A stretch of DNA of 64,000 nucleotides, taken from Adineta vaga (Eukaryota; Animalia; Rotifera). The notes beneath the pieces are model-generated. The model had not been told where the DNA came from and searched no databases. It was given only the letters and a program-made list of their open reading frames with translations. Location: NCBI GenBank assembly GCA_021613535.1, contig CP075492.1:4526001-4590000 (forward strand), given 5' to 3'. How positions within the stretch are numbered: position 1 is the stretch's first letter; each line of letters begins with the position of its first letter. The position numbers were made by a program, and so were the translations under genes. Shown piece after piece: positions 5,909 to 31,957 of the stretch.

Positions 5909-6877
5909 ATGGATAAACAACGTTTACGTGGGATTCTCTTGAATCTACAAGATCGTCTTAGTAATGACGATCGACAACGTTTTAATTTCTATCTTGCTGA
6001 TGAAGTTCCTCGAACTTTTACTATGGATTCAACATTTGGCGGTGCTCTTAATGTCATGCAATCATTATTCGAGCAGGATAAAATTCGAGAAAATGATGTT
6101 ACATTATTGATTACAGCATTCAAACAAATCAAATGTTTCGATGCTGCTAAACATTTAGAACGTAAAATTATCAATGAAATCTATGTGTTTTCAATGTTTT
6201 CTTTTTGTTCTAGAGGAAATGAAAAGAATGCGATCAAATGATGTTAAGCAGCCTGAAACAAATCTGTCGGCAGTGTTGCCATCACGTATAGATCAGTTAA
6301 TAATGGATCAAGAGGATGACGTTACTGTAAAACTTCGTATGTAATCATTAGTGTTGAATAGTTGATATAGATTTTGAAGATAAAATGAAATTTAGATTCT
6401 CGCCATGAAAAAAACAACGGTGGTCATAAGGATGAAAGTGATAATGGTGACAAAAGTACACCATTGATGAGTTCTAGCAATGAGAAGATAAAATTTTCTT
6501 TGGAAGAAATAGATCAACGACATTATGATTGTTCATCCAAAACAAAAAAATATTCATGGATATTATATATAACTTTAATGGTTTTATTGATAGTTGTTGC
6601 TTTTCAAGTTGGTTTGATTATTCATCTTCAGATGAAATATCGAGATATAGTTCGGAACTAATCAGGATCAACGGAACTCGTCAACATACGACAAATATCC
6701 ATTGACAGGTAATGCAATCATTTTACATTAAAAATTTTGACAGAAATAATGCTCTTATTTTAGAGTTACCTTACGGAACATTTGGATGTCACAATTTTTG
6801 TGTTTCTGGCAATGGCGGTCCATATAGTTCTGGAAAGTGTGTATGCACGTAGATGGAGAAGCGAGATGATTCTATTG
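5909..6877 (+). pseudogene. DED-transmembrane-defensin-like gene, copy 1 (disrupted ectodomain)
   Basis: Exons 5909-6161, 6214-~6336, 6396-6708, 6764-6877, with the same phase-1 intron pattern as copy 2. DED (LRGILLNLQDRLSNDD...LFEQDKI...NDVTLLITAF), TM (ILYITLMVLLIVVAFQVGLII). TAA at 6659-6661 with a frameshift, TAG at 6850-6852, and GC in place of the GT donor at 6878. Confidence 0.75.
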
Positions 6878-7224: not shown

Positions 7225-7776
7225 TCAATCGAAGGGATCGTAGTTTGGATCGGCCATCGGATCAGTCACTGGTATGTTTTGCCGTTTCAATGCAATACTG
7301 GGTGCTGTACTAGTAACGATGAATAATGTATCGTTTTTGTCGTTCAAATATTGAACATCAGATTACAAGTTTCGAATAAACATCGGTATCTCATTCAATG
7401 GTAATTCAGATAATCGTTTGCTTTTATCACGTAGTATTTCTTTTTCTGTTGCTATCATCTGAGCCAATAATGTGAATGATCTATCGCGTTCTGCATCTGC
7501 ATTTTGTACAATCTTGTCACGTTCTGCTACTATTTTCTGTCGAGTGTTGGCAGCGATTCGATCAAGAACATCAAGTTTTTCATTCAACAAATGCATAGCA
7601 CCATCGCTCTCTGCTGCAACTAAATCGACATGTTTTTGAGCACATTCCAAACAGATGAACTGTGAACAGTGAAGACATTGAACTTGTACCGGCTTCTTCA
7701 TACACTCAATACAATTTCGATTCGATGAGTCTTGCCGTTGTTGTTGTCTTGAATCGCTCTGTTGATATCTTGGCAT
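7225..7776 (-). pseudogene. B-box-type zinc finger + coiled-coil protein with a probable premature TAA
   Basis: CIEC-x8-CLHC-x4-CLEC-x3-H then a heptad helix. TAA at 7365-7363, after which the frame stays open for 45 codons (SDVQYLNDKNDTLFIV...NYDPFD) to TGA at 7227-7225. Confidence 0.65.
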
Positions 7777-9014
7777 AGATTTTCTAGGACTAATTTATTA
7801 CATACAATGAGTTAGAACGAATATAAAATATCAAAATCAATATTAGGTATATCTAAGTTAGAATTTCATGTATAAACTATTTTTATCTTCCGTCTTTTAG
7901 TATATACTCTTTAAGGAAAATTTTTTACTTAATCAACAAGATATTCAAAGCATTACCTCTGGTACATTTTGATATATTAATTCGATTAATAAAAGTTTCC
8001 AATGGACTAATCAGTAAACGTAAGCCCACCTATTGAATTAAAAAGAATACCAATATGTTATATTACAAAAATATGATGGTTGTAAACTGCGATATCAATG
8101 TCGTGTAACTCTAAGTGAAGAAATATCAATATAGGACTGCTTGATTATTGATTTTTCCTAAAAACTAATGGTGAAACTTTAAAGTAACAAAAATTCATCA
8201 TTTCGTGAATTTTGAAGAGGCAAGAAAATTTGATTCTCTTGGTTTTTATCCGTTAACAACTGGAAATAATCCTATATAGATGGCGTAATACGAAATTTGT
8301 TTAAACAGTAGATCATTATTTTCAACAGAGATTTTCTCTTAGTACGTGTTGAAAACTCAGCTTGGTTTTTCTTTAGATTCCATGTATATGTCTATTAGTC
8401 AAGATCTATTACAATTATTTATTCTTTCATTCATCAATATACACTATTTCATTTCTTAACTTTTTGAAAGTCAAATTGTTGTTATTGAAAGATTTCAGTT
8501 GAATTTATGATTACATAAGAAGACAAAAGAAAATGATCGAGAGAAAATACGATGTATGATGTTTGAGTATTCTGGTTTGGAATATTTTGTATTATTTCGT
8601 ATAAATTAAATTATAAATACAATTATACAACAGGTGTAGTATTTTTATACGATGGACAATTTTTTTTTTCATTCGGTCTGTTGCACCATTTTCTTTGTTG
8701 TCTAAAGAGCTAACTACTATTTTTCAAGATATCGGGTTATTCGCATGTAGAAAAAAGACCCATATATATATACATTACAAAAAACACAAATCAGTATCAA
8801 CATTAATATTTGATTGTAATAGTGAGAGTAAATATTTTGAAAGATTAGCTTTTGAAATCAATCGTTATCATTTATTTCAGTACATAGAATAAGGTGGAAA
8901 CTGTCAGTTTCATCTAGTAGAAGTGTCGAGGACGATATAGATTAACAACTTACGCATAAAAGTGGAATATTCTAGTTTTTCTATAAATTTTTCTTAACAA
9001 ATCAGATCTATTTC

Positions 9015-10187
9015 ATGGACTATCATCGTTTACGTGGTACTCTTTTAAATCTGCAAGATCGTCTTAGTGATGATGATCGCAAACGACTACATTTCTTTCT
9101 TGGTAATGATGTTCCTCGACGTATTCGAGATGATCAATCATTGGGTGGTACTCTTAGTCTCATGGAATCTTTATTTGATCAAGACAAGATCAAACAAAAT
9201 GATGTAACATTATTGATCAAAGCATTCGATCAAATTGGATGTCTCGATGCTGCTAGACATTTAGAAGGTAAGATTATCGACGTAATCTATGTGTTTTGAT
9301 TCTTTTTGTTTTTTAAATATTTAGAACAGATGAATGTTGTCAATAAACCAGTACAAAGTCTATCGATTCTAATGCCATCAATGATCGATCAATTGTTAAA
9401 CGACGAAGATAATGATGGAATTTCTGTAAAAGCTCGTATGTAATTATTAGTTGTCGTTGAAAAGGTCTATCTTGACTATACAGAATGAAGTTTATAGGTC
9501 TTGTTGATGAAAGAAATATCGATCGCGGGAAAACTTGTGATACATCATTGATGTTTGTTGATAATACAAAAAGAAAGTTTTCAGTGGACGAACAAGATTT
9601 TCCACAGACGTGTTATTTAAATTCGAAAGCAAAACAATGTTCAAGATTCTATAGTGTAATATCAATAGTTTTATTCATCCTTGCGATTGTTGAATATTTT
9701 TGGATGATTCATTTCAAGATGAAATATGATCACATTGTCAATAAGCATACAGAAAATATTAACATTCTGGAAGATTTAGAAAATTGCCGATTAAAAATGA
9801 AGGAAATATCGAACAAAAGTATAGCACATTCAGAGGAAGAGAAAGGTAAGTTCTCATCTTGAGATCTAGTTGTTCTACCAACTATTGATAGAAATAACCA
9901 TCTTACTTTAGTCTTTAGTCAAGGATTAACATGTGGTTGCAAACAGTGGTGTAATGAACGAGGTGAAATGTACGGAGTATGTGGCAATGGTCATGTATGT
10001 ATCTGTCGAAATATACCAATAACAGATGATTATATTGGTGAGACACAAGAAATCTGTTCGAATGTTTTCATCATCAATGTTTCATATCATTTAAGGAGAT
10101 GGCTGTACATGTAATCAGTGGTGTCGAACACATGCTCGTAAAAGTGGGGGAATTTGTGGTGATGGAGACACATGTATCTGTTCATAA
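9015..10187 (+). CDS. Type II membrane protein: N-terminal death effector domain, TM helix, stalk and two tandem six-Cys defensin-like modules (309 aa)
   Basis: Exons 9015-9267, 9325-9435, 9498-9845, 9912-10037, 10096-10187; all four introns are GT-AG and phase 1; 930 nt open frame. TM VISIVLFILAIVEYFWMI. Modules TCGCKQWCNERGEMYGVCGNGHVCIC and GCTCNQWCRTHARKSGGICGDGDTCICS*. Confidence 0.85.
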
Positions 10188-10393: not shown

Positions 10394-11422
10394 TTAATAT
10401 TGTTCTTCAGCCATAGCAGCATTTGGTACACGTTCAAATTCGATAATAAACAATGGTAAAATTTGTGCGGATTTGAAGAGAACAATTTCTCTATATTCTG
10501 GTGATATATGCGAATCAAAACCAGGTTCACAAGGTTTACCATACTTTTCACCACCTTTTTTAACTACATAAGATCGACCAGATAGAACCATACTTAACAT
10601 AATTTCATTGGATTTCTTGTAATGTTCAGCATAATGAATAGCATAATCAGCAGCAAAACCATGATAAATACCTTTGCCGAAATATCCTGGATCTAGTTGT
10701 TTGATCTTTCCTGCTTCAAGAAAACCATTCTTCGCAATATTTCGTAAACTTGAAGGTAATGAACCATGATAAACATAGAGTACTTGATGATTCTCTTCCA
10801 AATGTGTACGATATTGATTAAATTTTTCAAATAATTCCTTATTTCGAATTATTTTCAGACCACACAAACGAAATTTTACCATACCTGATAGACTATTAAA
10901 GAATTTACTTTCAACATCTCGCCACCAATACGAATCTTCAACAATGTCACAAATCGAAAATGCAATCTGTGATTCGATCATTCCCAATAATTTCAATCTC
11001 AGATGATTTCGTGAAGTTCCATCTGGTGGTATGTAATTTAGAAGTGTTTGTTCGATCTGACATAACTGATGTTAATCACATTGATCTACAAGATTTAACA
11101 TCGTCAGAAGAATATGATACGTCAGAAACGTTGATGCTGAATTTAATAAAATATAGCAGATTACATTCAAATGGAATGGATCTTTTTTAAATTCAATCCA
11201 TTTTACAGCTACCAACTGATAGCCAAATGTCGATGAAAGAAGATAGCGTGATAATGGAAATGTATCAGGAATGGTTGGTAAAAGTTCACCGATTCGGTCT
11301 GCAACTAAATCTTTTTTTCGAACAATTGCCTCCCATGATGGATTCGATCTATCCTGTAAGATACTTTTATACTTCTCGTCGATTTGATCAATTTTCCTTG
11401 CTAAATTTTCAACTTCATCCAT
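10394..11422 (-). CDS. PARP-catalytic-like ADP-ribosyltransferase with helical N-terminus, interrupted by an in-frame TAA (possible pseudogene)
   Basis: YVYHGS, GYFGKGIY, YAIHY, MLSMVLSG, GFDSH, REIVLF, QILPLFII. The two listed ORFs share one frame, separated only by TAA 11074-11072 and 25 sense codons. Confidence 0.8.
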
Positions 11423-17359: not shown

Positions 17360-18838
17360 TTAATCTTCATCATCATCAGGATCATCTTCTGCGATTTCAT
17401 TTAAGTTTTCATAATTCTGTCTTTGTTTATAATAAACATGGGATAGAACTATTCCTTCAACTGGATCATCAGCTCGAATTTTTCGAAGACAACGACCAAC
17501 AAATTGTGCAAATAATACCTAAACAATAAATGAATTTTTATTTATAGTGAAAATATTTCCAATTCAATGAATACAAACCTTTGATGTCGGTTGAACATTC
17601 CGTGCAATAACACATAAGCTTACTTGTTTTCGATCATATCCTTCAAGAAGTTTACCACACACAACCAAAATACGAATTTGTTCTGAAAAACAAGTTCAGT
17701 AAGGAGTTCCGTTCAGCTTCAAATACTATTTCATACCATTTTCAAATTGTTGAAGTACAGAATTCGAATTCTTTGTATCACCTGTATATGATGCTGCAAT
17801 ATTTCGATTGACTTTATTGTTGATTTCCGTTGCAAATCGTTTTGTTTCATTTTTCTCTTTCATTAAAATCATTGCCTGATGATGAACATTTCGATCACAT
17901 TCATCATGTTCATTTAATATTCGAAGAATTTCTTCAATTAATATCTAATTAAAGAAAAATCAGGGATTTATATTAATTTTAAAATTTCCATTACATGTCT
18001 TCGTTCAGGTCCTGAATCCTCTTCTCGTCCGATTTCATGAAATTTTGTTCGACGAATAGTTCCATTATTCATCAATGTATTCAAATTGATCTGGAAACAA
18101 ATTCTTCCATCTTGTTCATTTAATATCGGTTGTCCATTTCGAAATGGTGTGGCAGTAAGAAAAATTGTTTTACAATTGAAATATGATACAATATTATTCC
18201 ATGTCGGAGCGGGAAAATGATGTGCTTCATCAACAATTAAAAGATTGAAACTTTTACGATTTAAATTTTTCCAATCAACACTCGAATTTGTACCAAATTT
18301 TTGTGCATTAACGATAACTAAATTCTCAGCAAGATCTTCAATATCTCGTCCTTGAGTGACTATTCGAGATGCTTCAACAAACATACTTGCTGCATCTTCC
18401 GTAACAATTTGATGTTTAACATAGAAACTTCGTTTTGGCTTTTGTCTAAAACAAAAGAAGTTCATAAATAAAATCCATCTTTTGAGAAACTATCTTATAC
18501 CCAAAATCAGCTGCTAGTTGATTCGTAATTTGTAATGATGGAGTAATAACCAATACACGAGTTGTATTCAAAATATACGGAGCAAGAACAGCTATACCGG
18601 ACTTTCCACCACCAGTTGGAATAACAACTAAACCTATACGATAATTTTCTTGACTATACCAAGATTGCAATTGTAACAGCGCTTCGCGTTGATGAGGATA
18701 GAGCTTAAATAATTCCAATCTTTCAATAATACGCGAAGAATACGTGTTGAATCGTGATGTTTTCTCCTGAAAAGAATCAAGCAATTTTAAGTATATAGAT
18801 GAAATTGAGCATACCACATCTTTTAGATCGAGAGTCAT
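17360..18838 (-). CDS. Superfamily-2 DEAH helicase of ResIII/Irc3-like (bacterial-type) character, with spliceosomal introns; 5' end uncertain
   Basis: LYPHQREAL (Q motif), PTGGGKS (I), LVITPS (Ia), IVDEAHH (II), LTATP (III), ILVVCGKLLEGYD (V), QFVGRCLR (VI); acidic tail; at least four introns that splice in frame. Confidence 0.85.
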
Positions 18839-19103
18839 TCTCTATGACAAACAACTTATATGTGTTGAATGTAAAATATAACATCATACCTATGTAGATT
18901 ACCTTGCATAAGAGAAAAAAACCCAGAAAGGAGAAGAAGAAAAAACAATAAAATTTGATTGTTCTTTTAGGTGTTTAAAAAATCGAAAGATGTCGTAAAT
19001 AAACTGAAAATGAGTCAATCTTCCAGTTCCTTTTTTTTACGCATGAGAATAAAAAGAAAGTTTTACATTTGAATACTTGTACATATATATTTGAAATTCT
19101 TTT

Positions 19104-21055: not shown

Positions 21056-23253
21056 AGTAAATATTTACAGACTTGATAATTTGACATGCACCACCTAGAT
21101 ATTTAATAGAAATATCTCTGTTAGTTTTCTAATTCATTATTTTGACAAAATCTTATTTTATATATCTAATCGAGAAAAGTGTGTCCGTAGAATAGTCTTT
21201 TATAGTGAAATAGATGTACTAATAGTTTTTTAAATAAATATTTCTTTATCGTTGTTCAACAATTACCAAAACTTGAGAAGCAACTCAAACTTTTTTCTCA
21301 ATATTACATTTGCGAAAGATCTTCGACTCATTCAAGTGACTGCTATCTGAATAGTAAACTCAGAGTTTCAATCCTATCATCTCAAGGATTCGTATATTGA
21401 TTCGTTTCACTACTCATAATACCAACACTTTTGTTCTTGATGACTTGTCGACAACAATAAATACGATACAAATCATTTTGTACAATTTACAGTCAATTTC
21501 ATCTATACACGAATGCAGAAAGATTCATTTTCTTCTCTTGTATACACTATCGATAAGATGTATAAGAACGTCAAAATACTTTGAGAAAGATTTTCATATT
21601 AGTAAAAACTATTGACGACATATTTTGTGATGACACAAAGAAGAGAACGATGACAAACATACTAAGTACGATTATTAAGAGTTAGTCGATAATAGAAATT
21701 GATATGTTGCTGTTAGATTTTTTCGTACAAATAAATTTTAGAAATTTTGTTTAATATATATTCACACATTTCCTTTCTGAAACTTGCTAGAGGTTAAAAT
21801 TTTTCTTTAATATAATTTCTACTTAATTACTTGTTGATGGCAAATATAGAACTATCATGAGTATGTCATAAAACTGCTGAAGGATTATTTAATATTAAAG
21901 TACAAATTTTTCCTGACATGTATAAATCACTTCAAGTACCTACTGAGGTTATATGGGAAAAAAACGAATGCATTCAAACCATTCAGTTTCATTATGATGA
22001 AGTAGTTTATTACTCTTGTTAACAGTGTTTGTTTTTACAAGGATACTATTGATGCAATACATGTATCAGAAGTAACACAACATCTATATAAATCGATTAT
22101 AACATTGGCAACTCAATATAATCTTCTTTTCACATTAAAGTATTTTTAGTAGACGACTAACATAATTATCATTTTTATGAAATTTTCGCAAATCTTCTTA
22201 GTATTCTAATTTTCACGTTGTTTTTTTGTTATGCATTATGGAATTAACTAAAAATCTTATTCGATTGTTATACTGAATGATTTTAGAAATGATATATTTT
22301 ACGAAAGATTTTAATTGTTCTCTTTCAAATCCGACCTAACTCAATTCCTATTTCGATTTTTTACTATGTAGTTCTCGAGTATTTATTCGATAGATAAATT
22401 GCCTTTATATTACATTACTAATCTTGTTATAAAATTTAATCTGATGCTATGAATAGATATTATTTAAACATTGAGCTACTAATCTAATCGTATCATATAC
22501 AACGAAAGAGTAAATTCTTATTTAATTGATTATCATGTAAAACGTCTAAAAATAAATGGTCGAGATATTGATCAAAATATACTGTTTGAAATGGCTGAAA
22601 TTTGTGGTGCGCGTGTGAAGAAAAAACAATAAAATTCATGCATATTTCATTGGTATTTACATAGTTCAATAAAATCGAGGCTCAAAAGATGAAGAATTGT
22701 ACTTTTATAGATAAAAGGCTAAATTAATTAGACACAAATGTTAGTTGTTTGATGTGTTGTTAATTACGTTTCCTTTTTTATGTTGCATTCTTAATATCAG
22801 TCTTTTCTTACTTAATCTTGCATAAATGAATACACCATTGGCAATTTCCTTTCTCGGTTATTTAGTACTCTCGAAATTGAACTCGAAGAAACTTACATGC
22901 CGTTTGGATCGTGTAAATCAACTATACAAAACTATTATCAGTGCAAATGAGAATATTGTTTCCGTTAAATGAACAAGGGTGGTTTTTTGAGATTCATATT
23001 TCAAGAAATAATCTTGTTCTTTTCATCCACAATCTACTATACTTTACAAAGAGAAATATCTGTCGAAGAAATAATATTATCATTATGTACCTGAAAATGT
23101 TTACACAAAAAAAAATAGATAGAATGACTGAGCAGTCTACGAGAAAAATAACTTTCTTCATTTAAAATTTTAATGAGATAATTTCTTTTTCTATCTCGAA
23201 GCAAAGAAAAAAGAAGTGCAGAAGCGCAAAGCAGACATTTCATTTGATCTACC

Positions 23254-24318
23254 ATGTCGACAGCAACAGCTATTGATATTATTCATTTTACTCAAAAGTA
23301 TTCTCTATATTCAATTAGTATCATTTTCTTCTTTGGAATTATTGGCAACTTATCCAATATTCTTATCTTTACTTCTCTTAAACTCTTTCGAAACAATCAA
23401 TTTGTTCTTTATCTTCTCATTGAAGCAATTGCAAATCTATTTCAATTAACCATCTTTTTTCTCATTCAACTACTTATTGGAATCTATGAATACGATGTAG
23501 CTGCTTTTTCTCTATTCTGGTGCAAGTTTCGCTCTGCGATGATTGTAGTATGCACACTCGTCGCCTTTTCTTCGGTCTGTTTTTCTGCTATTGATCAATA
23601 CCTTTCTACCAGTCATCAATTCTTTCTCCGACAACTCTCTACCATCAAACTGGCTCGTATTCTCATCTCTATAGGTATCGTCATTGGGCTACTCCAAACA
23701 ATACCTTTCGCCATTTTTCTCGAAATTCGAGCGGGTGCCTGTGCTGTATTTAACTCACACATGACAAACTATATTTCGTATTTTTACTATCCAGTTTTGT
23801 CTGGTTTTCTGCCCATACTTATTGCATCCACGTTCAGTTTGTTAGCATATCAAAACGTTCGACGAATTGTTCGACGACAAATTCCATTAGTTCGCCGACG
23901 ATTGGATCAACAATTAACTGCAATGGTTCTTATTCGTATAATAATATTTGTAATATTTACTTTACCATATACAATTCAAAGAATGTACACATACATAACA
24001 AAGATCAATCAAACAAATTTGTATCCTTTCGCTATCAATGCTTTGGTAGCAGCAGTTGCAAGCTCATTTTTCAATCTAAATTATGCGGTATGTTTTATTG
24101 AACGATATTCTTCTATATAATTAATATCATGTTTTTTTTCCGAATAGGTATCGTTTTATATATTCATGATAACATCAGGACGCTTTCGGCGACAAGTGAA
24201 AACAATTTTAATTAAGAAATATTGGCGTCGATGGAAACGATGGTACTCTTTTAGTAAAAATGAAGTGAATCCAAATGTGCCGATAAGATCAATGGATTCT
24301 AGTGATGTTCTCGAATAG
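23254..24318 (+). CDS. Rhodopsin-like (class A) orphan GPCR, copy 1
   Basis: Exons 23254-24087 and 24148-24318. Seven TM segments, GIIGN, WCK, AIDQY (DRY equivalent), TLPY, NYA|VSFYIF...RFRRQ. Confidence 0.9.
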
Positions 24319-25177: not shown

Positions 25178-26081
25178 TACATATATTTTGCTGCTTTTGG
25201 TGATGACAAATTAACAAAAAAGAATAAAGTCTGTTTTTGACTTGATCATAACGAATGATTAAAGAAGCATGATGCTCTAGGTGAACCTTTTAATTAAAAT
25301 CTGGTAGAACAAGAAATGAACAACGAAAGCAATTTGTTCTTTTGAGGAACGACTAATCACAACTTTTGAAATAAATTCCTAAACAACGTTAAATTGTTTA
25401 ATTATTTTTGTAGTTCATTTATGTTCCAATGTATTCAGCTAAAATATGGATTTTCTTGACGAATTATTTAGTATCTTTAAAGTTAACTAACTCGTTCAAA
25501 AACGACGATATCTAAAATATTCTTCTAATTCATAAATACTGACTTTGGTATTAAACTACAATCGTATAATGGAGTCAACAATCTCGATATATAAAAGTAC
25601 GCATTATATTAATTAATGATGTTCTTTTCAGCTTAACTAATGTTTTGAAAAGCTTTTCAGTTATAATGAATATAATTAGTCGAGGATTTGATCTGTCGAT
25701 AGTAACAGTAACGAACACACTTTGTTTGATACAATAGAACAAATTTTAGTACTTTCTTTTCCTTTCGATATGGTTCATTAATCTTCTATTTTTTTACACG
25801 TCATTCTTGAAATTTTTCTCCCTGTTTATATATAGACACGAAGCCATTAAGTTCAGACTGTCATCACAAACGGTAATGAAGTTTTGCTGATAGATAATCC
25901 ATTCATTAGTTCTAATCTACGGATAAAAGAAGAAACAAAACTGAATTCAAGAGGGGAAAAAAAGATCACGATTTCCGGTTGATAGCTCCTAATGTAACAA
26001 GAAAAACTTTACGCTTGCTCTTTAATGAATGAAAGCATCAGTAGAGAACTCGCGTGAAGAAGAGATATCATTTTCAGTACT

Positions 26082-27138
26082 ATGAGCACATTTTCAACTA
26101 TCAATATTCTTCATTTAATTCAAAAGTATTCTCTATATTCAATTAGTATCATTTTCTTTTTTGGAATTATTGGCAACTTATCCAATATTCTTATCTTTAC
26201 TTCTCTTAAACTCTTTCGAAACAATCAATTTGTTCTTTATCTTCTCATTGAAGCAATTGCAAATCTATTTCAATTAACCATCTTTTTTCTCATTCAACTA
26301 CTTATTGGAATCTATGAATACGATGTAGCTGCTTTTTCTCTATTCTGGTGCAAGTTTCGCTCTGCGATGATTGTAGTATGCACACTCGTCGCCTTTTCTT
26401 CGGTCTGTTTTTCTGCTATTGATCAATACCTTTCTACTAGTCATCAATTCTTTCTCCGACAACTCTCTACCATCAAACTAGCTCACATTCTCATCTCTAC
26501 AGCCACTATCATTTCGCTACTTCAAACAATACCTATTGCCATTTTTTCCGATATCCAAGCGGGTGCCTGTGCTGTATTCAACTCACACATGACAAACTAT
26601 ATTTCGTATTTTTACTATCCAGTTTTGTCTGGTTTTCTGCCCATACTTATTGCATCCACGTTCAGTTTGTTAGCATATCAAAACGTTCGACGAATTGTTC
26701 GACGACAAATTCCATTAGTTCGCCGACGATTGGATCAACAATTAACTGCAATGGTTCTTATTCGTATAATAATATTTGTGATATTTACTTTACCATATAC
26801 AATTCAAAGAATGTACACATACATAACAAAGATCAATCAAACAAATATGAACCTATCTGTTATCAATAGTTCGATAGGATTTATTGCATTTGCGTTTTTC
26901 AATCTGAATTATGCGGTAAGATATTTGAAGTAATGATAAAATGAGTAGTATGAATTGCTTTTCTCAGATATCTTTCTATTTGTTTTTGGCAACATCACCA
27001 CGATTTCGTCGACAGGTCAAATACGTTCTAGTGAAAATATTTTGGCGTCGATGGAAACTTTGGTATTCTCGTACTGGCAATCAAGTTTTACCGATTATGG
27101 GTGACCGATCAGATATTGATAATGGCGAGATAGAATGA
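26082..27138 (+). CDS. Rhodopsin-like orphan GPCR, copy 2 (tandem paralogue)
   Basis: Exons 26082-26915 and 26968-27138. Same motifs and intron position as copy 1, with long near-identical tracts. Confidence 0.9.
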
Positions 27139-30297: not shown

Positions 30298-31339
30298 TTA
30301 TCTGACATCACTACCGACATAGTCCGTTATTTCCCTTAATGGTCTGATTTGATTATGATTTCGTTGACAAAACTGTTTACATTGACGCCAATATCTTTTT
30401 ACCACGAGATGTTTTACTTGACGACGATAACGTGATGACACAATAAGAAAAACATAAAATGTAAGCTAAAAAAGATCAAAGATATTTTCTCAAACAGCAA
30501 ATTCAATGACATACCGCATGATTAAAAAGAACGATTGAATTAAGTATTACTCCAGCTAAATATGCAATAATAATTTGCATTAAATTCGTTCGATCAAAAG
30601 AAGTTGTAGACCAATACATATAATAAACGATATAAGGTAGGTATAAGATGACTAGAAGAATAACTCGTGCAAAGACTAATGTTGTCATTTGTTGATCAAG
30701 TCGACGACGAATTATTGGGATTTGTCTTCGAACAATTCGTCGAACATTTCGATAGGCTAATAAACTAAATATCGATGAGATTGCCATCGGTAAAATTCCC
30801 AATAAAATTGGATAATAGAAATATAACTGATAACGAAGATAGGTTCGATCGGATGAAAAACAAGTTATTCGCATATATGAAGTCGTAAAAATACCACCTG
30901 GAATACTATGAAGAATACAAATACCGAGAGCAACAGCTACATATATTCTTGACGATTTTTGTGTACATCGTTGACGAAGATAAGGTATGGGACTTGATGA
31001 AAAATATTGATCGTTTGCAGCCAAACATACTAATATGAGTGAAAATGGTGTAAAAATTTGCATGAATGTTGATCGAATTTTGCACCAAATTGAATAAGTA
31101 TCGACGATTGTTATTGTTTGTGCAATAAGTGTAAAAATAAGAATAGCGATATTGACAAGAGATTCTATTTTGAAATAAAATGAAGAAAGATTTCTTCGGA
31201 ATGATTTCTGATTACTAAATACGAGAATATTGAGAATATTTCCAATGGCTCCAATAGTTGTAGTAATAACACTACTATAGAGAGAATATATTTTAATAAA
31301 TTCAGAAATCGCACGGACATTTACAACTATTGACGACAT
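30298..31339 (-). CDS. Rhodopsin-like orphan GPCR, copy 3 (more diverged)
   Basis: Exons 31339-30515 and 30465-30298. GAIGN, WCKIR, ANDQY, AYRNVRRIVRRQIP..RRRLDQQ; same TM7 intron position as copies 1 and 2. Confidence 0.88.
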
Positions 31340-31957
31340 GAGAGATGTTCGATAGTCACCCGATAAATATTATAAATGAGATTCATTACGAATAAAAAAT
31401 AGTTTATCTATCAGAAAAGCTGTTCTAGACAAATTCCTGAAATCTTCGCCATTCAAAACTGTCAGAAACAGTTGCGAATGACGTCAAAGAAAATATTTTT
31501 ATCGCGAACTTTAGAAATGTTGTCGAATTCAAGTACTATATATATATATATATCTTTTCAATGCACTTTCAAAGCATGAAACAGAAAAGTGATCTTTATT
31601 CACTTCAAATATAACGAACAAAAAAGAATCGTATTTCTAGAAATCAAGAGATGTCGCTATTTTCTGAAATCTTTTTAAAAAACAAATAGTGACATCTATG
31701 ATTATTCTTCAATAGAAATATGTTCGTTTGACTTGATATAAAATCTAAAAGATTTTTCGAAAAACTAATATAAAAAGAGAATCGATTTTAAACAAGTAAA
31801 AAGTCATACATTCTGATTGCTAATCCATCAAGTATCAAAACTTATCCGATTGGAATATTCATCCATTTTTACCTTGCAAGAAAATTTTGAAATATCTCAA
31901 CATTCATTTCACTGAAAATTATTTCTCATTATTGACTCATAAAAACATTTCGACAAG

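Follow-up and report, generated by a model that had tools for sequence, protein, structure and literature searches.

A gene at positions 9,015–10,187 of the forward strand of the window (the whole 64,000-nt stretch of Adineta vaga DNA analyzed here) encodes a 309-residue protein that joins a divergent death effector domain (DED) to a predicted transmembrane (TM) helix, a helical stalk, and two six-cysteine modules that are likely to adopt the cysteine-stabilized alpha-beta (CS-alpha-beta) fold. The gene likely belongs to a family of rotifer surface receptors that sense microbes, because its relatives keep the DED yet carry other, sugar-binding-type domains. We lean slightly toward the view that the protein is a type II pattern-recognition receptor that signals by DED clustering.

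Exon 1 (9,015–9,267) encodes the DED (residues 1–84), exon 2 (9,325–9,435) a linker predicted to be cytosolic, exon 3 (9,498–9,845) the remaining linker, the TM helix, and the stalk, exon 4 (9,912–10,037; phase 1-1) the first Cys module (C1–C6 at 9,932–10,006), and exon 5 (10,096–10,187) the second Cys module (C1–C6 at 10,104–10,181) and the stop codon. All four introns (57, 62, 66, and 58 nt) have GT-AG borders and lie in phase 1, and the spliced coding sequence of 930 nt (309 residues) has a single stop. Each of the four junctions of this DED–TM gene occurs as a GT..AG skip in Logan contigs from runs X1, X2, and X3, which carry two study codes and are presumed, rather than recorded, to be RNA; exact removal of GT-AG introns across two study codes is the pattern expected of cDNA. 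Junctions 1 and 2 are spliced in X1, X2, and X3, junction 3 in X2 and X3, and junction 4 in X1 and X2. No contig spans the whole gene, two X2 contigs (records 4 and 5) share 25 nt within exon 3, and intron 3 is still present in one X7 contig. The single protein matched by exon 4 is NCBI I4U23_012031 from A. vaga (P0001), which is identical at 309 of 309 residues. The intact five-exon, 309-residue frame proposed in a preliminary description of this DNA is therefore confirmed by the splice skips at all four junctions together with the identical NCBI model, and its splicing of the Cys exons to the DED–TM exons is borne out by the transcript-like contigs. Inspection of the sequence also bore out the absence of a signal peptide: the DED begins at Met1, and the N-terminus lacks any hydrophobic stretch. 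Some loose ends of the Logan contigs come from different transcripts whose second module is similar, indicating that further module genes are expressed in A. vaga.

Other features of the window include an ORF with a PARP catalytic domain (10,394–11,071, reverse strand; Pfam E = 1.2e-9) that is convergent with the DED–TM gene, ORFs with the helicase-like motifs GGGKS and DEAH (17,971–18,841, reverse strand), and long ORFs resembling multi-pass GPCR-type genes (23,248–24,117 and 26,058–26,930 on the forward strand and 30,506–31,369 on the reverse strand), two of which are apparent near-duplicates.

Judged by its sequence, the N-terminus is a divergent DED. Pfam PF01335 matches residues 7–82 of I4U23_012031 with E = 6e-8 and 33.3 bits, which is below the curated cut-off of 35.9 bits, and 45 family members score 20–32 bits against the same model. 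The top three Atlas clusters are DEDs (0.90, with 180–185 shared features), a 12-row family profile searched against the PDB ranks the caspase-8 prodomain first (E = 0.0065), and VIA places a DED assembly on top (Z = 5.0), with a PYD tied at 4.8. By these three comparisons, the death fold resembles a DED more than a DD, CARD, or PYD. Six helices are predicted for residues 3–89, at low pLDDT, in the full-length AF2 model. The RxDL motif is lost, with C-L-D-A aligned to the R-L-D of caspase-8 DED1, and the Cys of C-L-D-A is invariant in 12/12 family rows. F27-F28 aligns with the F-L pair in the helix 2 hydrophobic 'FL' patch of caspase-8 DED2. The dN/dS ratio of the DED is 0.31 among metagenome array copies, for which the pairs are non-independent. 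Thus, the DED assigned to the N-terminus in the preliminary description stands as a homology, on the evidence of Pfam, Atlas, and the caspase-8 profile, but its score lies under the Pfam cut-off and RxDL is gone. Two earlier searches were set aside: a first DED profile against the PDB gave weak Dronc CARD matches and nothing else, and the single match from phmmer of P0001 against the PDB was put down to chance. Another A. vaga protein, P0112, joins a DED to a 450-residue region with no Pfam match and no TM helix, and is a possible cytosolic partner.

The sole hydrophobic stretch of the protein covers residues ~166–197 and peaks at residues 174–192 (9,653–9,709, forward strand; KD 2.35), in agreement with the one TM helix previously proposed. 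This TM helix or signal anchor forms a long helix with the highest pLDDT in the full-length AF2 model, which was built from 3 sequences and is poor overall (pLDDT 45.7). The stalk that follows (9,713–9,844, forward strand; residues ~194–237) is predicted to be helical and contains a sequon at N227 and an unpaired C218. An orientation with the DED inside and the modules outside, the type II topology previously proposed, is predicted from the charge distribution across TM-bearing relatives: of 30 dereplicated members, 21 are more basic on the N-terminal side and 5 on the C-terminal side, and 4 are ties (p = 0.0025). N-glycosylation sequon density fails to separate the two sides (1.2 versus 1.4 per 100 residues). 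An extracellular site for the modules is also suggested by the presence of the same module on secreted proteins and on a matrixin protease.

Both Cys modules occur as first described, fitting the pattern C-x-C-xx-W-C-x7/8-G-x-C-G-x-G-xx-C-I-C, which was absent from 100 shuffled windows. Searched against the 2011 ORF fragments of the window, an HMM of the module recovered only the two focal frames (E = 7e-15 and 2e-14; next, 0.28). Each module has six cysteines with CxxxC, GxC, and CxC spacings, and the AF2 model of the 72-residue tail (26 rows; mean pLDDT 76.9) gives each a helix and two strands in a hairpin. Of the 10 rows returned by Foldseek, all non-significant (E = 5–9.7), 9 are defensins or scorpion toxins. 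The best VIA match to the modules (Z = 2.1, rmsd 1.1 over 28 residues) was tied with an unrelated chain, and re-alignment of the modules by VIA gave no rows at Z 2. A module sequence profile placed an insect defensin first (E = 0.46), and a Pfam scan of the 72-residue region found no families at E 10, hence no defensin match. Atlas matches of 0.79–0.80 to scorpion short toxin clusters fell below the meaningful range and were discarded. An EGF assignment did not fit the region, which has no Pfam EGF match and is predicted to contain helices; weak EGF signals do occur among homologues, one as an hEGF match with E = 0.048 and one as a nematode homologue named EGF-like by UniRef. A CS-alpha-beta fold is likely, as the best fit to the predicted models, with matches that are non-significant; such scores, with CS-alpha-beta as the consistent answer, are probably common for 26-residue domains. 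The defensin-like fold suggested in the preliminary description agrees with the cysteine spacings and the predicted helix and hairpin, but no search returned a significant match.

In sequence, the modules differ from typical killing defensins: the n-loop is a single residue, the charge is close to neutral, and a Trp is nearly invariant. The n-loop is one residue long in 62 of 62 module copies, a selection defined by the pattern itself, compared to 4–16 residues reported for insect defensins (PMC5116183, in the part of that article available to us). A Trp precedes C3 in 59 of 62 copies, which are likewise pattern-selected and include near-duplicates, and the KCxN channel-toxin motif is absent from the module copies. 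Net charge is 0 and +1 for the focal modules and averages +0.56 over the 62 copies, near-duplicates included; insect-type defensins are secreted, cationic, antimicrobial peptides, and the focal modules are predicted to be tethered. [quoted passage not shown] The dN/dS ratio is 0.52 for module 1 and 0.22 for module 2 (from non-independent pairs), and pN exceeds pS (0.39 versus 0.32) at the six loop codons only, which falls short of showing positive selection on the modules.

We searched the 72-residue tail against 1.84 billion representatives and obtained 23 matches, 21 of which contain the module; P0077 and P0081 proved to be unrelated repeats and were dropped. The named carriers, from the 20 of 23 matches looked up, are Adineta, Rotaria, and the nematode Plectus sambesii. 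The module stands behind signal-peptide-like N-termini in P0065, P0075, P0079, and P0080, on a matrixin protease in P0063, and in other proteins in repeats or behind TM–stalk fragments; one free version with a signal peptide has a net charge of +5. The Plectus proteins (P0078, P0079, P0098, and P0099) have the module either secreted or TM-tethered on a Thr-rich stalk, with no DED match, and their link to rotifers may reflect transfer, contamination, or convergence. In P0063, P0065, P0072, and a metagenome locus (L011, 2,191–2,701), the module pair is joined to a matrixin protease or to uncharacterized secreted domains, one with an HExxH-like motif, an arrangement that suggests a targeting module.

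The family to which we assign the gene comprises 72 related proteins with a DED, many of them alleles or alternative models of one another; 59 were found among 530 candidates from a search with P0001, and a DED alignment search accepted 17 of 7996 candidates, of which 13 were new. All that have an organism name come from Adineta or Rotaria. A TM helix follows the DED in 44 of the 72 and is absent from 28, of which 14 have a named C-terminal domain. With domain labels that we assigned ourselves, the C-termini are NHL in 28 proteins (20 with a TM helix), jacalin in 10 (4), GH16 in 6 (6), DM9 in 3 (3), Cys modules in 3 (3), and TPR in 1 (1); the remaining 21 (7) have none or a fragment. Two orthologues, P0002 from A. 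ricciae and P0003, have the full architecture. Between orthologues, the DED is the best conserved part (82% and 73% identity, respectively), and the modules are 64% and 58% conserved, compared to 19–32% for linker and stalk; the stalks of the three orthologues are 23–30% identical.

Comparison of a GH16 member (P0013) and an NHL member (P0006), which share 96% of the DED and 89% of the linker and TM region but have unrelated C-termini, indicates that exchange of C-terminal domains is recent. On a DED tree of the 27 of 72 rows that have both a TM helix and a named domain (LG+G4), a single clade of NHL members was rejected (p-AU 0.002), and single-clade origins were not rejected for the jacalin (p = 0.15) and Cys-module (p = 0.25) members. 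All six GH16 members have A-I-Y-L-M-A where a solved laminarinase has E-I-D-I-x-E, and the loss of the catalytic E-x-D-x-x-E makes these siblings likely binders; the same catalytic-residue change is known from non-catalytic glucan-recognition proteins. For 10 of 11 pairs picked by hand, the TM-less model matches its TM-bearing partner except for the missing TM block, so that TM-less members may be gene-model skips or real cytosolic isoforms.

Module genes also occur in tandem. At 10 of 13 metagenome loci with the module, the module pair is accompanied by a TM helix and by DED or DED–linker parts, and 6 of the 13 contain two or more head-to-tail units, with four in 4.5 kb at L007. Exon borders of the metagenome copies agree with those of the window gene: counting the window copy, the module-1 acceptor lies 20 nt before C1 in 15 of 15 copies and its donor 31 nt after C6 in 14 of 15, and the module-2 acceptor lies 8 nt before C1 in 13 of 14. 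An otherwise invariant helix-3 segment of the DED is deleted in three array members (L003 880–1110, L007 3048–3269, and L008 1551–1772). These members, which may represent one orthologous gene, have intact TM and module parts and adjoin copies with a canonical DED, in the manner of paired receptors.

The window itself contains a tandem paralogue upstream of the focal gene (5,909–6,877, forward strand; tblastn and exon model). It has an intact DED exon (5,909–6,161) with an altered helix-3 segment, followed by linker and TM exons, a stop (6,659–6,661) directly past the TM segment, and a decayed module-1 exon (6,764–6,877). Exon-wise DNA similarity to the focal gene gives z = 26.8, 7.9, 6.5, 3.7, and 2.1, and the dN/dS ratio of its DED relative to the focal gene is 0.4. 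The paralogue could be a decoy, a signaling chain, or a young pseudogene. We considered its last exon as a module minus C1 and C4; although DNA-homologous (z = 3.7), this exon has no module HMM score, reaches a probability of 4.6% in hhalign, and contains a stop, and for these reasons it was not taken as disulfide evidence. Between the two DED genes, a B-box-like Cys cluster precedes a coiled-coil-like stretch on the reverse strand (7,363–7,794; weak Pfam matches).

In the receptor model that we favor, the modules, with their predicted defensin fold, would engage a repetitive ligand on microbial surfaces outside the cell, ligand-driven clustering would bring the cytosolic DEDs together, and the clustered DEDs would recruit a DED-bearing partner, which may be a caspase, a FADD-like adaptor, or another family member. 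Judging from the jacalin, DM9, and catalytically dead GH16 siblings, the ligand would probably be a glycan or wall component; its microbial origin is proposed mainly because siblings carry glycan-type domains, and NHL and TPR domains, as a counterpoint, are not microbe-specific. The preliminary description had clustered DEDs recruiting a caspase with no adaptor. Lectin-type or dead-glucanase siblings at the same position support the receptor part of that proposal, but we infer the ligand, the clustering, and the partner, and direct caspase recruitment becomes one option beside binding to an adaptor or a family member. A. vaga is reported to have 101 caspase-domain proteins, and bdelloid caspases to be mostly highly divergent and mostly not induced by fungus (PMC11258130, in the parts available to us); DED terms are absent from 12 of the 16 supplements of that paper, and FADD and caspase-8 terms from its file 13. 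A more ambitious proposal, for which our confidence is low, is that bdelloids, which reportedly lack canonical TLRs, have a surface immune system of their own in which a conserved DED–TM chassis takes up exon-shuffled recognition domains, the defensin fold has turned from weapon to sensor, members with an altered DED or a truncation serve as brakes within the tandem arrays, and DEDs fire caspases directly.

Several other explanations fit parts of these data. A type II DED receptor might respond to a non-microbial cue, such as a host ligand, a self/non-self or adhesion signal, or food particles, and act in tissue remodeling or stress instead of immunity. Purifying selection on the modules (dN/dS 0.52 and 0.22) would fit a fixed ligand, and the NHL and TPR siblings are generic binders, but glycans are the ligands suggested by the dead GH16, jacalin, and DM9 siblings, and genes in conflict typically show recent swapping and tandem arrays; we regard a non-microbial cue as unlikely. 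The sheddable antimicrobial precursor raised as an alternative in the preliminary description is weakened. Such a protein would release its modules or kill on contact, with the DED steering trafficking or release, as might be suggested by the free signal-peptide-bearing modules (P0075, P0079, and P0080, one of them at +5) and by defensins being the nearest fold matches. However, the charges of the focal modules and of the 62 copies on average are near neutral, the modules are under purifying selection, no common cleavage site or shared dibasic site was seen by eye in the stalks of the three orthologues, and the same DED–TM chassis bears lectin or propeller domains of 250–300 residues rather than peptides, so that we think this function improbable.

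Comparably improbable, in our judgment, is a scavenging or anchoring role, with the DED mainly self-assembling for receptor clustering or endocytosis and no death or immune signal sent. Loss of RxDL and the array neighbors that combine a helix-3-deleted DED with intact modules would fit such a role, but the DED is the most conserved part of the protein (73–82%) and keeps the FL-like patch. The reverse topology, with the DED in the lumen and zinc-binding Cys modules in the cytosol, is one to which we give very little credence: it would match the 5 of 30 members with reversed charge bias, but it runs against the overall bias (p = 0.0025), the secreted and extracellular-enzyme contexts of the module, and the phase 1-1 module exon, phase 1-1 exons being typical of extracellular modules.

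If the receptor model holds, the family offers candidate sensors for bdelloid pathogen detection, on which published work concerns effectors (NRPS, glucanases), and its constant DED and variable ectodomain would illustrate, in nature, how death-fold receptors can be wired in a modular fashion. In the literature searched, which consisted mostly of titles and the starts of abstracts and had most subscription papers outside its scope, we found no description of this rotifer DED family, of a type II DED receptor with swappable ectodomains, or of a tethered defensin-like sensor. In the parts of the sources available to us, canonical TLRs are reported absent in A. vaga (PMC6043800), a rotifer lectin survey left out TM proteins and has no mention of death domains (PMC8878817), and amphioxus is described as having DED-NACHT and TNFR-caspase shortcuts (PMC2575513).

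The inferred logic resembles that of Fas and TNFR1 with FADD and caspase-8, in which extracellular clustering leads to death-fold assembly. Those receptors are type I, with TNFR repeats, a death domain, and the DED on an adaptor, whereas the rotifer DED is on the receptor itself; the focal protein has an N-terminal, DED-like death fold and no TNFR or Death Pfam match. Dectin-1, DC-SIGN, and scavenger receptors are type II proteins with a helical neck, a C-terminal C-type lectin or SRCR recognition domain, and short tail motifs. The rotifer protein is alike in its predicted N-in orientation, neck, and C-terminal recognition region, but uses a death fold instead of tail motifs. Insect GNBP/beta-glucan recognition proteins are soluble and trigger protease cascades; like them, the GH16 siblings (not the focal protein) have GH16 domains that have lost both catalytic Glu residues and the Asp, but the rotifer domains are fused to a TM helix and a DED. 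CS-alpha-beta defensins and short scorpion toxins, as covered in the available part of Tarr 2016 (PMC5116183), share six cysteines, the CxxxC/GxC/CxC spacings, and the helix and hairpin predicted here, and the rotifer modules differ from them in n-loop length, near-neutral charge, lack of KCxN, tandem arrangement, and tethering. The nearest precedent is the Cys-rich-TM-DED-TRADD-N proteins of the oyster Crassostrea virginica (Kaur et al. 2021, PMC8195603, a paper whose main text, as available, does not include rotifers), which demonstrate that a DED on a receptor has precedent and which are also lineage-specific and single-pass, with an intracellular DED, a Cys-rich region outside, and a constant and a variable part. 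Pfam scans of the rotifer proteins gave no TRADD-N match. As described there, the oyster proteins are type I, with the N-terminus out, a constant ectodomain, and variable intracellular effectors including TRADD-N; the rotifer proteins, by their predicted topology, have the N-terminus in, the DED alone inside, and a variable ectodomain.
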